Shown: one piece after another, positions 16,167 through 29,573 of the stretch
Layout of the letters: each line of letters starts with the position of its first letter
Numbering within the stretch: position 1 is the stretch's first letter
IMG/VR virus record: IMGVR_UViG_3300031417_000415
Strand: one strand, 5' to 3'
Length of the DNA: 35,027 nucleotides
Source of the DNA: a virus
Taxonomy: Duplodnaviria > Heunggongvirae > Uroviricota > Caudoviricetes
Notes under the pieces: generated by a model
The model's database searches: none
What the model saw: only the letters and a program-made list of their open reading frames with translations
Told to the model about the DNA's origin: nothing
Translations under genes and position numbers: made by a program

Positions 16167-16270
16167 CATCCGCGGCCTCCAGAACGGCCGATCCGGCTAG
16201 ATGAGCGATTGCTAGACGCCGCCGACATGGTTTAAGGATAGATAATAATATCATCCTGAAAGCGACCACC

Positions 16271-19200
16271 ATGCTGAGCGGCGTCAAGATCTGGGCATAT
16301 GCAGCGTCGACCGCCATGGTCCTGTGCACGTCCACGATCGCGGCCGCGCAGTCCTCAGACGTCGTCGTGATGCGCAAGATGATCGACGGCCGTCTCGACG
16401 GAGAGCTGCTTCCCCCTTCGATCAGGCCCGCGCCTGCGCAGCCGAAGCCCGGCGATGCCAACTACTATTCATGGCAGGTCACCGCCTGGAAGCAGGTCGG
16501 ATCCTGCGGAAGCCGCGGCACCGAGACGCGGACCGTGCAGTGCGTCCGTACGGACGGTAACGTGGGGCCGGACGCGTCGTGCACGGGCAACGGATCGGGC
16601 ACGAAGCCCATCGCCAGCCGCCCGGCGAACATAACCCAGACGTGCGGATACGGCTGGCAGACAAGCGACTGGAGCGTTCCCGCCCCGACCTGCGGCAAGG
16701 CACGCCGTACCCGGGACGTGGTCTGCATGCGCTCCGACGGAAGCCCGGCGGAAGCCGACAGCTGCCCGGCCGGGTCCAGGCCCGACGCCAGCGAGAGCTA
16801 TACGGACACGTCGACCTGCAGCTACGGCTGGTCGACTGGCGCATGGAGCGAGCCCTCCACGCAGTGCGGTCCCGCGACGCTCAGCCGCGCCGTCGCCTGC
16901 GTCCGCTCGGACGGACGCGCCTCGCCTGCGGACAAGTGCGACGCGGCTGCAAGGCCGGCGACGACCCAGGACGTCGAGATCGAGGTCGGCTGCGCGAACC
17001 ACTGGACGATCGGCGAGTGGGGCTCGCCCGCCGCCGCCTGCGGCAGCACCTTCTCCTATCGCAGCGTGACCTGCGTCCGCTCGGACGGCGTTCCCGTCTC
17101 CGACGACCAGTGCGTCACGACCAAGCCGATCGGGCGAGAGGCAGCGATCGACTATTCGACCTGCACCGACGGCCGCTCGAACGATCACCCGTACGGATGG
17201 AGCATAGGCGAGTACGGCGCTCCCAGCACGACGTGCGGACAGGCGGTCGCGACACGCAGCATCAGATGCACGGGCAACGACGGCAGGGAAGTCTCCGCCG
17301 ACCGGTGCGTGACGCCACGCCCGGAAGCGAGCAGGGCGTCCTACGAGACGAGCGGCTGCACGGTGCGCTGGGCGACCGGCGAGTACGGGGACCCCCAGCC
17401 CGCGTGCGGCGCCACGGCGAGCCTGCGCAGCGTCTCCTGCATGCGCTCGGACGGACAGTCGGTCTCGACCTACAGCTGCCCTGCGGACGAGCGCCCGACG
17501 TCGTCGCGTCCGACGACCGACTATTCGGCATGCTCGTTCGGATGGACGGCCACGTCATGGTCCGACTGGGACGCCACCTGCGGTCCCGCGACGCAGACCA
17601 GGGAGGTCTCATGCCAGCGTTCGGACGGAAGCGCGGCGATCGACGGCAGCTGCGACGCGAAGACGCGCCCGGCGACCTCGCAGTCCTCCTATCAGACCTC
17701 GGGCTGCGGCATCGCATGGAAGGCCGGCGCATGGGAGACGGCGCTTCCGGCGTGCGGAGCCTCGACCCAGTCGCGGCAGGTCGTCTGCATGCGATCGGAC
17801 GGGCAGGAGATCGACGCGGGAGAATGCTCGCGCCTGGCCAGGCCTTCCGACACGCGCGACGTGACGGACTACTCGACGTGCTCGTACGCGTGGGTGACCG
17901 GCGCCTTCCAGGGGGCGACGACGACCTGCGGGACGACGACGCGCAGCCGCAGCGTCCTGTGCCAGCGATCCGACTCCGCCATCGTCGACGACGAGTCCTG
18001 CGCCAGTGCAGGCGACCGCCCTGCGACGAGCGAGACGACCACGCAGACGTCCGGCTGCACCTTTGACTGGGACACGGGCGACTGGGGCCGTGCCGCTGCC
18101 GCATGCGGTCCCTCCGTCCACAGCAGGACGGTGACCTGCCGCCGCAGCGACGGCACGGCGGCCGACCCCTCGCAGTGCGTCAAGACGAAGCCTTCGACAA
18201 GCGAGGCCGTGGCCGACTACTCGACATGCACCTACGACTGGAAGGTCGACCAGTGGGACGGCAGCGGAGGCTGCGGCGACACGGTCACCCAGAGGCGCAG
18301 CGTGTCGTGCATACGCTCCGAAGGCTCGACGGTCGCGGACGCATACTGCGGCAGCCTGAAGCCGGCGCCGTCGCAGACGATCACGGACTATTCGGCATGC
18401 AGCTATTCCTGGAAGGTCGTGAACGGCCTGTGGTCGAGCACCTGCTCGGCTGACGCGACACGCACCAACTCCGTGACCTGCCTCCGCCAGGACGGAGCCG
18501 AAGTCGACGATTCCTTCTGCGGAAACGGCAAGCCGGCGACGGTCGACACGGGCAACTACTCCAGCTGCACATACACCTCGCGATACGGGGAATATCAGAC
18601 CTGCACGACAACTACGGCAGGCGGCACGACGGGCACACAGACGGCGCCCATCGCGACCTGTACCCGTTCGGACGGAGCCTCGGTCGCCACCAGCCAGTGC
18701 TCGTCGCAGAGCATCAGCAGATCCTGCTCGATCAGCTATGTCCCGACGTACAGCGATACGTATGGCACCTGCCAGGCATCGTCAGCAGGAAGCACCACGG
18801 GCACGCAGACGGCGCAGATCACGAAGTGCACGCGATCGACGGATGGCGCCACGGTGCCAAACGGCTACTGCCCAGCGTCGACGACCAGCCGAAGCTGCTC
18901 GATCACGTACACGCCGACGTACAGCGCCACCTACGGAGCCTGCACGCCGACAAGCGCCGGACAGACCAGCGGCACGCAGTCGGCACCCATCTCGAGCTGC
19001 ATCAGATCAAGCGACAACGCCAGCGTGTCCACGAGCTACTGCTCTCCGTCGACAAAGACGCAGCCGTGCACGGTGACCTACGTGCCGACCTACGCCGGCT
19101 ACGGCTCCTGCACGGCCGATGCCCCAGGCAGCACCACTGGTACGCAGAGCGCAGCGATCTCATCGTGCACGATGAACGGCACGACCGTCAGCAACTCCTA

Positions 19201-19510
19201 CTGCTCACCGCAGACCAAGACACAGACCTGCAGCATGACCGGCTTCAACTGCGGAACGACGATGACGCCGGGTGGCACGGCCTGGGGAGTCGATGCCGAC
19301 GGATGGACCAGGATCGGCGCCGTAAGCGGTACGACGCAGGCCGCGCGCATCGCGGACGCACTCCCGAAGTGCACGGCATACGCAAACAACACGCGCAAGG
19401 CAGCCGGCGTGTGCGGCTTCAACGATTCGAACAGCGGAAGCCTGTACTACTGGAGCTCGACTCGCACGACGCAGGTCGGCGGCAGCAACGTGAGCACCAC
19501 CTGCAAGTAG
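16271..19510 (+). CDS. secreted Cys-rich thrombospondin type-1 (ADAMTS-type) repeat protein
   Basis: Signal peptide (…TIAAA-QS); 12 repeats of about 58 aa of form W-x4-W-x5/6-CG-x5/6-R-x-V-x-C-x-RSDG-x7-C-x4/5-P-x11-C, then 4 Thr/Ser-rich variant repeats. Confidence 0.8.
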   Translation: MLSGVKIWAYAASTAMVLCTSTIAAAQSSDVVVMRKMIDGRLDGELLPPSIRPAPAQPKPGDANYYSWQVTAWKQVGSCGSRGTETRTVQCVRTDGNVGPDASCTGNGSGTKPIASRPANITQTCGYGWQTSDWSVPAPTCGKARRTRDVVCMRSDGSPAEADSCPAGSRPDASESYTDTSTCSYGWSTGAWSEPSTQCGPATLSRAVACVRSDGRASPADKCDAAARPATTQDVEIEVGCANHWTIGEWGSPAAACGSTFSYRSVTCVRSDGVPVSDDQCVTTKPIGREAAIDYSTCTDGRSNDHPYGWSIGEYGAPSTTCGQAVATRSIRCTGNDGREVSADRCVTPRPEASRASYETSGCTVRWATGEYGDPQPACGATASLRSVSCMRSDGQSVSTYSCPADERPTSSRPTTDYSACSFGWTATSWSDWDATCGPATQTREVSCQRSDGSAAIDGSCDAKTRPATSQSSYQTSGCGIAWKAGAWETALPACGASTQSRQVVCMRSDGQEIDAGECSRLARPSDTRDVTDYSTCSYAWVTGAFQGATTTCGTTTRSRSVLCQRSDSAIVDDESCASAGDRPATSETTTQTSGCTFDWDTGDWGRAAAACGPSVHSRTVTCRRSDGTAADPSQCVKTKPSTSEAVADYSTCTYDWKVDQWDGSGGCGDTVTQRRSVSCIRSEGSTVADAYCGSLKPAPSQTITDYSACSYSWKVVNGLWSSTCSADATRTNSVTCLRQDGAEVDDSFCGNGKPATVDTGNYSSCTYTSRYGEYQTCTTTTAGGTTGTQTAPIATCTRSDGASVATSQCSSQSISRSCSISYVPTYSDTYGTCQASSAGSTTGTQTAQITKCTRSTDGATVPNGYCPASTTSRSCSITYTPTYSATYGACTPTSAGQTSGTQSAPISSCIRSSDNASVSTSYCSPSTKTQPCTVTYVPTYAGYGSCTADAPGSTTGTQSAAISSCTMNGTTVSNSYCSPQTKTQTCSMTGFNCGTTMTPGGTAWGVDADGWTRIGAVSGTTQAARIADALPKCTAYANNTRKAAGVCGFNDSNSGSLYYWSSTRTTQVGGSNVSTTCK
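16466..19231 (+). repeat. protein-level tandem repeat array (12 TSP1-like units at 16466-18568, 4 variant units at 18569-19231)
   Basis: Repeats counted by hand from the translation; diverged at DNA level, conserved Cys/Trp/Arg and the RSDG motif. Confidence 0.85.
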
Positions 19511-19567
19511 CACGATCGGGAAAGTCGGACGGAAAAGACGTCCCGCCACACATAAAGGGCGAAAAAC

Positions 19568-19909
19568 ATGGCAGGAAAGCAACTGAGCCAGGTGACGGAC
19601 CACGACCTCCTCCGGTCGGGCCTCGTCACGGTCTTCGGCATCGAGAGCTTCGGCTCCGTCATGCCAAGCAGCAAATGCGGCATCCTCGATCCGCAGCACG
19701 TCTGGAGCAAGGCGAAGGACGACATCGCTGAGGAGCCTACCTACCAGTCGTGCACGAAATGCGGCTCTGTGCGGCGGTCGCCTTGGGGCCTTGTCGACGA
19801 GACCGGCCACGAGGTGTCGCTCGCGCCGATGGACGGGGACGAGCGCGTGGCGAAGGCCTGGCCCGCACCTGTAAGGCGAGCGCTGGAACGCGTCCCGATG
19901 TCACTATAG
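19568..19909 (+). CDS. hypothetical protein (113 aa) with Cys/His motifs
   Basis: KCG...HVW...SCTKCGS pattern; fills the gap after the TSP1 gene. Confidence 0.6.
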   Translation: MAGKQLSQVTDHDLLRSGLVTVFGIESFGSVMPSSKCGILDPQHVWSKAKDDIAEEPTYQSCTKCGSVRRSPWGLVDETGHEVSLAPMDGDERVAKAWPAPVRRALERVPMSL

Positions 19910-20046
19910 TGTCGCCCGATGGGCATCCGACCTGGGCGTAACGTGATCACCCACCCGTACCGGGATCATGCCGAGGCGTAAGGTAGGGAAAGCCATGACA
20001 ACGGCGATGGACGTGTGGCTCGACGAAAGCGAAAAAGGAAAGACCG

Positions 20047-29523: not shown

Positions 29524-29573
29524 GACATTCCATCCTGAAAGTGTGGCATCATACGTACAGGAGAGGAAAAGTC

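Follow-up and report, generated by a model that had tools for sequence, protein, structure and literature searches.

A bacterial thrombospondin type-1 repeat protein with two complementary cysteine patterns, a conserved N-terminal box and a variable tip of predicted PAN/apple-like fold

Why should DNA catalogued as that of a tailed virus encode a long array of thrombospondin type-1 repeats (TSRs)? TSRs are textbook adhesion modules of animals and apicomplexans, and three disulfides are usually counted in the definition of their fold. The DNA in question is the 35,027-nucleotide stretch of IMG/VR record IMGVR_UViG_3300031417_000415 (Caudoviricetes), called the window throughout, and the gene in question encodes a protein referred to here as P0001. 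An original prediction, made from the letters of the window alone, had described the product as a eukaryote-like, ADAMTS-type repeat protein with one disulfide pair lost; its gene boundaries match those found here exactly, and the open reading frame (ORF) is the sole long one at its location with coding-type G+C at third codon positions (GC3, 0.86). This study found that the gene is bacterial and lies on a giant plasmid- or phage-like element, and that its product consists, in order, of a signal peptide, a short conserved box, a proline-rich linker, 16 TSR-type units and a C-terminal head (Table 1). With a probability of about 0.5, P0001 is a Sec-exported, modular binding protein built of a tag, a stalk and a head. 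Thr, Ser, Ala and Gly are abundant in the chain, which also contains 69 cysteines (Cys) and 26 tryptophans (Trp).

As judged by profile and predicted fold, the repeats of P0001 are true ADAMTS-type TSRs. Units 1-12, those that contain Trp, are 56-65 residues long, with four Cys at about +16, +27, +40 and +58, and share the signature W-x4-(W/Y/F), CG, R-x-V-x-C-x-R-S-D-G and (R/K)-P. Pfam PF19030 (TSP1_ADAMTS) was matched at 196.3 bits against a cut-off of 23.8 (E 7.5e-59) in 12 stretches, a count equal to that of the Trp units (stretch coordinates unlisted), and was the only Pfam-A family found at E up to 10; no NCBIfam or PHROGs family was matched, and the only PDB sequence match of the repeats was human THSD7A. 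PF19030 is defined as an ADAMTS-type TSR that lacks one Trp and has one Arg replaced by a hydrophobic residue (bioRxiv 10.1101/779553), and the W-x4-W and R-x-V of the units are consistent with that definition. An AlphaFold model of units 6-8, computed from a 20-row alignment of repeat triplets from P0001 and a Sphingomonas paralogue, adopted the TSR fold with a predicted local distance difference test score (pLDDT) of 95. The best 22 Foldseek rows for this model were all TSRs, led by THSD7A (E 1.7e-6) and followed by properdin, TSP-1, C6 and Sema5A; the best 25 rows of the VIA structure search were also all TSRs, with Z 7.8 to 8oxr, and single domains fitted the TSRs of Unc5D and of the POFUT2 complex over 48 residues at 2.8-2.9 Å. 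The ADAMTS-type identity originally proposed is thus borne out by the profile and by top structural matches that are TSRs only. In the Trp units, W4 never varies, and conservation of R23 and R29 is 90% or higher; these residues could supply the Trp/Arg layers. Position 9 is W, Y or F in 11 of the 12 units, and is shifted in unit 12.

The units resemble the TSRs of ADAMTS, ADAMTS-like proteins and THSD7A (PF19030, clan TSP1, 8oxr) in profile family, three-stranded fold and tandem arrangement, as well as in lacking one Trp of the classical TSR, in reading R-x-V where classical TSRs have R-x-R, and in a retained C3-C4 pair (bioRxiv 10.1101/779553). They differ in having four Cys instead of six, in occurring in two complementary versions, in following one another without linkers, and in belonging to a bacterial, Sec-exported chain without protease, immunoglobulin (Ig) or PLAC domains. 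The eukaryotic glycosylation consensus sequences are also missing: the aromatic spacing is W-x4-W rather than the WxxW of C-mannosylation, and C1 of the O-fucosylation motif (C1-x-x-S/T-C2) is absent, as expected for a bacterial protein.

Every unit of P0001 has four Cys, not the six that make up the three disulfides of a canonical TSR. Which ones are missing? In alignments of units 1-12 with THSD7A, the first three Cys (in C-G, in V-x-C and at +40) correspond to C2, C3 and C4, and the C1 position is held by Ala, Pro or Thr. Six-Cys TSRs occur in other alphaproteobacterial genomes; one set (locus L012) shares the C-x-R-S-D-G and R-P signatures, and a joint alignment brings the units of the window into register with this set at every column: other residues stand at C1 and C5, and the final Cys coincides with C6. 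Cys co-occurrence was counted over 1057 bacterial units from 96 proteins, parsed with a hidden Markov model (HMM) anchored on C3 and C4, since parsing by regular expressions was too loose. Where C2 was the only upstream Cys, 819 of 876 units had one far Cys, at the C6 position; where C1 was the only one, 31 of 43 had one near Cys, at the C5 position, and none of the 43 had one far Cys. With both C1 and C2 upstream, two Cys were found downstream in 116 of 129 units. This is the pattern predicted by C1-C5 and C2-C6 pairing, and it supports the coordinated loss of C1 and C5 that had been claimed for units 1-12, whose remaining disulfides would be C2-C6 and C3-C4. C3 and C4 are the 'top' pair in the thrombospondin/ADAMTS/properdin class (10.1101/779553); none of the 16 units lacks either of them, and they would be bonded in each.

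The original prediction counted 12 tandem four-Cys units. These are present, but the Cys-repeat array continues with four more units and then the head, and the four that were overlooked carry the opposite disulfide loss. Units 13-16 are 53-57 residues long, with four Cys each and no Trp; they have the signature Y-x-P-T-Y-x-x-x-Y-G-x-C, A-G or P-G at the C2-G site, a retained I-x-x-C-x-R-S-x-D-G, and the last Cys just nine residues past C4. Six-Cys Trp-less units in another genome locus (L016; Y-G-S-C-S-T-T-C-G-T-G-T-Q-T-A) align with them, and this alignment and the Cys positions together indicate that C2 and C6 are the Cys lost from units 13-16, and that C1, C3, C4 and C5 remain. In a model of residues 820-1079, the Trp-less units reached a pLDDT of about 80-93 and had the strand pattern of TSR units. 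Units with C1 only were found in 26 of the 96 proteins parsed; in P0001 and its relatives P0002 and P0006, the Trp-less units are the last ones ahead of the C-terminal domain. One chain with two complementary TSR reductions, one without C1/C5 and one without C2/C6, is new here.

Tandem Repeats Finder detected no DNA-level tandem repeat in the TSR gene, and the units are 23-46% identical in protein sequence to the reference unit 6, suggesting that the array is old rather than a product of recent slippage. Unit ends alternate between Y-(E/Q)-T-S-G-C and T-D-Y-S-T-C in units 5-11 of the window and in units 4-20 of P0003, a relative from Sphingomonas sp. 3-13AW; this alternation amounts to a two-unit (~116 residues) super-repeat in the stalk.

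How does the protein leave the cytoplasm, and what could hold it at the cell? Its N-terminus reads as a signal peptide, as the original prediction had it, of the Sec type, and the AxA/Q cleavage layout recurs among homologues. The cleavage site has no lipobox Cys, and no lipobox, LPXTG, PEP-CTERM-like signal, type IX secretion system C-terminal domain, beta-barrel or autotransporter domain was found in P0001 with Pfam and NCBIfam; the earlier statement that no obvious anchor or autotransporter domain is present therefore stands. That account had overlooked a conserved box that starts two to six residues past the cleavage site, and that about half of 89 homologues carry at the same place. A box profile built on the first 50 residues returned at least 50 protein clusters, about 100 to 1600 residues long and with or without TSRs, in which the consensus DVVVMR(R/K)-x-(I/V/L)-A-P-P is nearly invariant and is followed by a Pro/Thr linker. 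An exact DNA pattern for the box, applied to four records, found one TSR gene, since the box varies slightly; the profile search performed better. Many box proteins are 100-200 residues long with no Pfam match, and others are 300-1200 residues long without TSRs; Pfam gave no informative domains for eight larger and two small stalk-less ones. P0091 has the signal peptide, box, linker and head of P0001 with no TSR, and heads of the carbohydrate-binding module type CBM_4_9 were found on P0057 (27.8 bits, above the cut-off) and, more weakly, on P0062 and P0095. P0091, the CBM-type heads and the stalk-less proteins point to an architecture of a tag, an optional TSR stalk and a variable head. Four box proteins are encoded on one 128-kb contig (three in locus L009, plus P0097), and three of the four TSR paralogues of Sphingomonas sp. 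3-13AW carry the box N-terminally. No Pfam or NCBIfam model matches the box, and a literature search turned up nothing on it. We regard the box as a candidate new signal for sorting, tethering or processing.

The box also bears on gene starts. The NCBI starts of P0003 and P0007 appear to have been placed at the box's own Met (MRRSLDPKTRT...), so that the signal peptide is left out. Reading P0003 from a start further upstream in the same frame brings back a signal peptide and VVLMRR, and the deposited start looks mis-called; that of P0007 is probably mis-called likewise, judging from its identical first residues alone. A twin-arginine reading of M-R-R was rejected on two grounds: M-R-R is not succeeded by a hydrophobic region, and the signal peptide and D-V-V-V ahead of it are conserved. 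Variants of the layout were observed elsewhere in the family. A second TSR subfamily of 660-790 residues (P0032, P0033, P0035, P0037, P0040, P0041, P0043, P0044, P0048, P0050, P0052, P0053 and P0055) has (I/V)(I/V)FRR-x-I at the extreme C-terminus, not the N-terminus, and most of its members have an N-terminal DPIPGLYNTG; the copies on Erythrobacter and Sphingosinicella plasmids have a T-P-A-F-R-V-P-L variant after the signal peptide.

The C-terminal head, which the original prediction also overlooked, is with moderate confidence PAN/apple-like in its modelled fold; we assign it to no family. The model has strands, an 18-residue helix and three further strands, at a pLDDT of 53-82. In a VIA search with the head-containing model, independent of Foldseek, the best 13 rows were all PAN/apple domains (Z 4.7-6.0, 67-103 residues aligned, root-mean-square deviation 2.6-3.6 Å in 12 of the 13). 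These included the Sarcocystis lectin SML-2 (2yil; Z 6.0, 70 residues, 2.6 Å), plasminogen (Z 5.9) and Toxoplasma MIC4 apple 5 (2ll4; Z 5.8); further rows among the best were the factor XI and kallikrein apple domains, the N domain of HGF, AMA1 and an Eimeria PAN module. In its predicted layout the head resembles the PAN/apple domains of SML-2, MIC4, plasminogen, HGF, factor XI and kallikrein, with the order beta-beta-helix-beta-beta-beta over ~85 residues, and Cys in the helix (1034), in the following strand (1048) and at both domain ends (994 and 1078), a placement that fits an apple-type closure and a helix-sheet staple. It differs from apple domains in having two possible disulfides rather than three, no Pfam PAN match and almost no sequence relatives. 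A search of 1.84 billion representatives yielded just three real ones, namely P0002 and a pair of proteins ~110 residues long; a fourth, P0006, is 40% identical in the head and was unlisted by that search.

Another feature missed by the original prediction is that the tip and what follows it have been swapped between near-identical loci. Metagenomic locus L005 is syntenic with the window (phosphoesterase, TSR gene, small ORFs, CCA enzyme) and 96-99% identical to it over ~11 kb. Identity is ~100% up to ~18400, the start of unit 12, then 47-76% up to ~20040, and 98% thereafter; synonymous differences rise from ~2% in the stalk to 37-47% in the tip, and the L005 relative has three Trp-less units where P0001 has four. 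On this comparison of sequences, the distal cassette is the product of recombinational exchange, as in receptor-binding proteins. The small ORF inside the cassette has no Pfam match and was not called as a gene in L005.

Taken together, these parts suggest how P0001 may work. After cleavage of the signal peptide, the mature N-terminus would expose the DVVVMR(R/K) box on its Pro-rich linker, and the box would most likely serve as a signal for sorting or tethering, by which this end is held at the cell envelope or on a partner. The stalk, made of 16 linker-free TSR-fold units that would each have two disulfides formed in the periplasm, would be long, stiff and rod-like. Once past the outer membrane, the stalk would present the PAN/apple-like domain as the ligand-binding, specificity-determining tip, a part that recombination exchanges between close relatives. 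The ligand would probably be a glycan or a surface protein of another cell or of a substrate, and P0001 may thus act as an adhesin. Variable-length stalk adhesins of bacteria include the 'periscope' proteins (SasG, Rib-type repeats). P0001 shares with them an anchored end (a candidate one in P0001), a tandem-repeat stalk, presumably rigid in P0001, with a number of repeats that differs between close relatives, and a functional tip; it differs in its TSR fold, in the N-terminal position of its candidate anchor, in its Gram-negative-type (alphaproteobacterial) setting and in its repeats, which are diverged at the DNA level and make slippage unlikely.

Several observations weigh against a tag-stalk-head binding protein. 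No experimental datum on any family member was found, and a literature search returned no paper on bacterial TSR arrays. The best Foldseek matches of the Trp-less units are TSRs at weak scores (E 4e-3 and above), and a PDB sequence search with the Trp-less-unit profile gave no match. The head model is of moderate confidence (pLDDT 53-82), Z values of 5-6 can also be reached by unrelated small alpha/beta domains, and Pfam PAN_1 to PAN_4 had no match in P0001 at E up to 10. Finally, the box could be a cleavage site and not a tether, and the neighbours of the TSR gene at the loci compared include no conserved gene for a secretion system, an usher or an anchor. As for other searches, Foldseek with the model of residues 820-1079 returned no PAN match, its list being filled by weak TSR rows, and the ESM Atlas gave no usable match to the whole of P0001 or to the head.

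A wider reading is possible, and we put it forward tentatively: that the box is an unrecognised alphaproteobacterial sorting or tethering signal that displays lectin-like heads, some on a TSR stalk and others not, and that giant plasmid- or phage-like elements encode many of these. At the same time, bacterial TSR and PAN/apple domains would belong to an ancient prokaryotic stock on which animals and apicomplexans later drew.

Homologues of P0001 were found in 89 clusters at 23-85% identity, including six-Cys bacterial forms. All four plasmid-database matches are on 305-408 kb plasmids (Erythrobacter, Sphingosinicella, Azospirillum), three of them typed as mobilizable, and Sphingomonas sp. 3-13AW has four TSR relatives on one 581-kb contig. 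PF19030 was found in one of 151 genomes of the order (the query genome itself), in six of 401 of the class (the query genome and five others) and in none of 14 control genomes. Carriage by a mobile element, as originally proposed, is borne out by the relatives on large plasmids and by this patchy distribution. A genome-contig search with the single P0001 protein found nothing. The NCBI entries named 'thrombospondin type-1 domain-containing protein' from Sphingomonas sp. 3-13AW and Azospirillum sp. TSA2s (WP_136705936, WP_136705937) are 33-41% identical to P0001 and have four-Cys 'RSDG' units; they differ from it in C-terminal heads and repeat numbers, were named from a Pfam-type domain alone, and are unstudied. 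Canonical six-Cys arrays were observed at loci of 42-46% GC in three alphaproteobacteria with genomes of 1.7-1.8 Mb (L011, L014 and L015; genomes G252, G532 and G415), with the motif W-S-x-G-x-W-S-x-C-S-K-T-C-G-G-G-T-Q-T-R; the L014 array is fused to what appears by eye to be a Hint/intein-type C-terminal region.

A phage origin of the gene was rejected: no TSR match was found in 50,697 phage records, and the only phage DNA similarity of the window is 164 bp of the CCA-enzyme gene, shared with Brevundimonas jumbo phages. The neighbours in the window are an MHYT-PAS-GGDEF-EAL protein, a PilZ protein, a phosphoesterase, a CCA-adding enzyme, a kinase-phosphoesterase-RNA ligase fusion, an endonuclease and many ORFs without recognised relatives (ORFans), nearly all on one strand; PHROGs recognised the endonuclease and otherwise gave weak matches only. 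No homology of the neighbour genes to the four plasmid loci was found, and no conserved partner gene emerged. A lipoprotein subtilase autotransporter, with an architecture that we take to be NalP/SphB1-like, is also encoded in the window and could be a processing partner of surface proteins such as the TSR protein. Upstream of the TSR gene, one promoter-like site was found against 0.4 expected. The CATCCTGAAA element, the reverse complement of TTTCAGGATG, has two exact copies and, with up to one mismatch, four matches against 0.7 expected; no obvious Shine-Dalgarno sequence lies between it and the TSR start codon. In loci L008 and L009, genes for Acb1 (directed against cyclic-oligonucleotide-based antiphage signalling, CBASS), a spore-photoproduct-lyase-like radical SAM protein, a weak Imm32 match and TnpB were observed amid one-strand ORFan runs, consistent with a giant phage- or plasmid-like element that carries many counter-defence genes.

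Table 1. Coordinates of the features discussed. Positions without a prefix are those of the window; an L prefix marks another locus.
Feature	Position	Strand	Remarks
Promoter-like site CCGACA-16-AATAAT	16222..16249	+	AT-rich patch upstream of TSR gene; consensus match alone
CATCCTGAAA box	16252..16261	+	9 nt before ATG of TSR gene
CATCCTGAAA box, second exact copy	29531..29540	+	
Coding sequence of TSR protein P0001	16271..19510	+	1079 aa
Sec-type signal peptide, residues 1-26	16271..16348	+	Likely cleavage AAA/Q; read from sequence, no predictor run
Box D-V-V-V-M-R-K-M-I, residues 30-38	16358..16384	+	Candidate signal; Pro-rich linker follows to residue 62
Twelve Trp-containing TSRs, residues 63-766	16457..18568	+	Pfam match, predicted fold, Cys alignment
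Four Trp-less TSR-like units, residues 767-987	18569..19231	+	Cys at C1, C3, C4, C5; C2 and C6 absent
Four-Cys head, 92 aa, residues 988-1079	19232..19507	+	PAN/apple-like predicted fold
Variable distal cassette	18400..20040	+	TSR unit 12, Trp-less units, head, ~0.5 kb downstream; compared with L005
Small ORF, 113 aa	19568..19909	+	Inside variable cassette; no signal peptide, CxxC, good GC3
Lipoprotein subtilase autotransporter, 815 aa	26166..28613	+	Lipobox LSAC, ~100-aa PT-repeat linker, S8 domain, C-terminal barrel ending WNARF
Other box site	L009:1498-2046	+	
Other box site	L009:2072-2515	-	
Other box site	L009:9962-10345	+	
Other box site	L006:9911-10060		
Other box site	L007:1452-1601	-	
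Other box site	L008:9271-9420		
Restored N-terminus of P0003	L006:9911-10003		Sphingomonas sp. 3-13AW
Azospirillum TSR gene	L002:9098-12441		Adjoins gene for 1192-aa hypothetical protein
Azospirillum TSR gene	L003:11245-12849		Adjoins gene for 1192-aa hypothetical protein
Acb1, radical SAM, weak Imm32 and TnpB genes	L008:4796-5290, L008:5589-6653, L009:8184-8744, L009:14395-15552		

Could the protein serve the element rather than the cell? It would then be a surface protein for the spread or defence of the giant element, through mating-pair stabilisation, recipient recognition or surface/entry exclusion, with a swappable tip that would set partner specificity by analogy with PilV shufflon adhesins or phage tail fibres. 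We regard this as rather unlikely. The plasmid matches and their mobilizability would suit it, as would the exchange of the tip cassette relative to L005 and the co-oriented ORFan strings with RNA-repair and anti-defence-type genes (Acb1, Eco1-like) in the window and related loci. In two Azospirillum plasmids, the MOBH F-type tra operon contains TSR genes, with traA (pilin) on one side of them and dsbC/traC on the other. However, the traA-dsbC position is a cargo hotspot in SXT/R391 elements, and location there need not imply a transfer function; these TSR genes could be hotspot cargo or encode a transfer-related adhesin. In addition, the DVVVMRR box is missing from the Azospirillum proteins, which carry different domains; neither the window nor L005, L008 or L009 contains tra, pilus or virion genes, and the phage records, as stated, hold no TSR match.

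It is unlikely that the box and stalk deliver a variable C-terminal effector in the manner of polymorphic toxins or bacteriocins, with the small ORF behind the TSR gene as the immunity gene. The variable cassette does comprise a C-terminal domain and ~0.5 kb downstream with a small cytoplasmic ORF, many box proteins are secreted and 100-200 residues long with diverse heads, and a weak Imm32 match lies two genes from P0091 in L009. Against this, the head has no toxin-family match and is predicted to have a disulfide-bonded, binding-type PAN/apple fold, and several other heads are carbohydrate-binding modules. The break point falls inside the stalk, in unit 12, and not at the head boundary, and the downstream ORF, which has no counterpart called in L005, matches neither a toxin nor an immunity family.

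A spacer or scaffold, in the periplasm or on the outer surface, that binds no specific ligand would account for the long, linker-free and probably disulfide-locked array and for the lack of a recognised anchor or secretion partner. Such a role is quite improbable, since 16 units of ~5 nm (an estimate from known TSR dimensions) would span much more than the periplasm is wide, the distal tip is lectin-like and the fastest-changing part, and the gene is accessory and rare (6 of 401 class genomes). The least probable account is that of a host mimic gained recently from an animal or protist and acting on host extracellular matrix or complement-like systems: both TSR and PAN/apple domains are characteristic of adhesins from animals and apicomplexans (for apicomplexan TSP1 domains, PMC3417536) and the sole PDB sequence match is human, but the best eukaryotic match, ADAMTSL3, has E 1e-17 at 25% identity against dozens of bacterial matches with E below 1e-100, the composition is that of the replicon (GC 0.64-0.70, GC3 0.86; window G+C 57-71%), six-Cys intermediates exist in bacteria, both glycosylation motifs are absent, the named sources of relatives are soil, rice paddy soil and marine sediment, and there is no effector-secretion context. 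The 'eukaryote-like host mimic' of the original prediction thus gives way to a large, deeply diverged bacterial family.

In sum, P0001 is not a new kind of protein: RefSeq already labels the family, and TSRs are no rarity in bacteria. New are the two complementary two-disulfide TSR variants, the PAN/apple-like tip indicated by modelling, the occurrence of the box beyond TSR proteins, and the swapped distal cassette. A bacterial TSR family on two disulfides offers a natural experiment on which bonds the fold needs, with C3-C4 always kept. The combination of a TSR stalk and a PAN/apple-like tip mirrors the microneme adhesins of apicomplexans, and bears on the origin of eukaryotic adhesion domains. 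The box recurs in dozens of secreted proteins that have nothing else in common and may be a new envelope-sorting signal, a proposal that can be tested, and the swapped tip may provide a handle on how giant extrachromosomal elements of sphingomonad-type bacteria alter the surface of their hosts.

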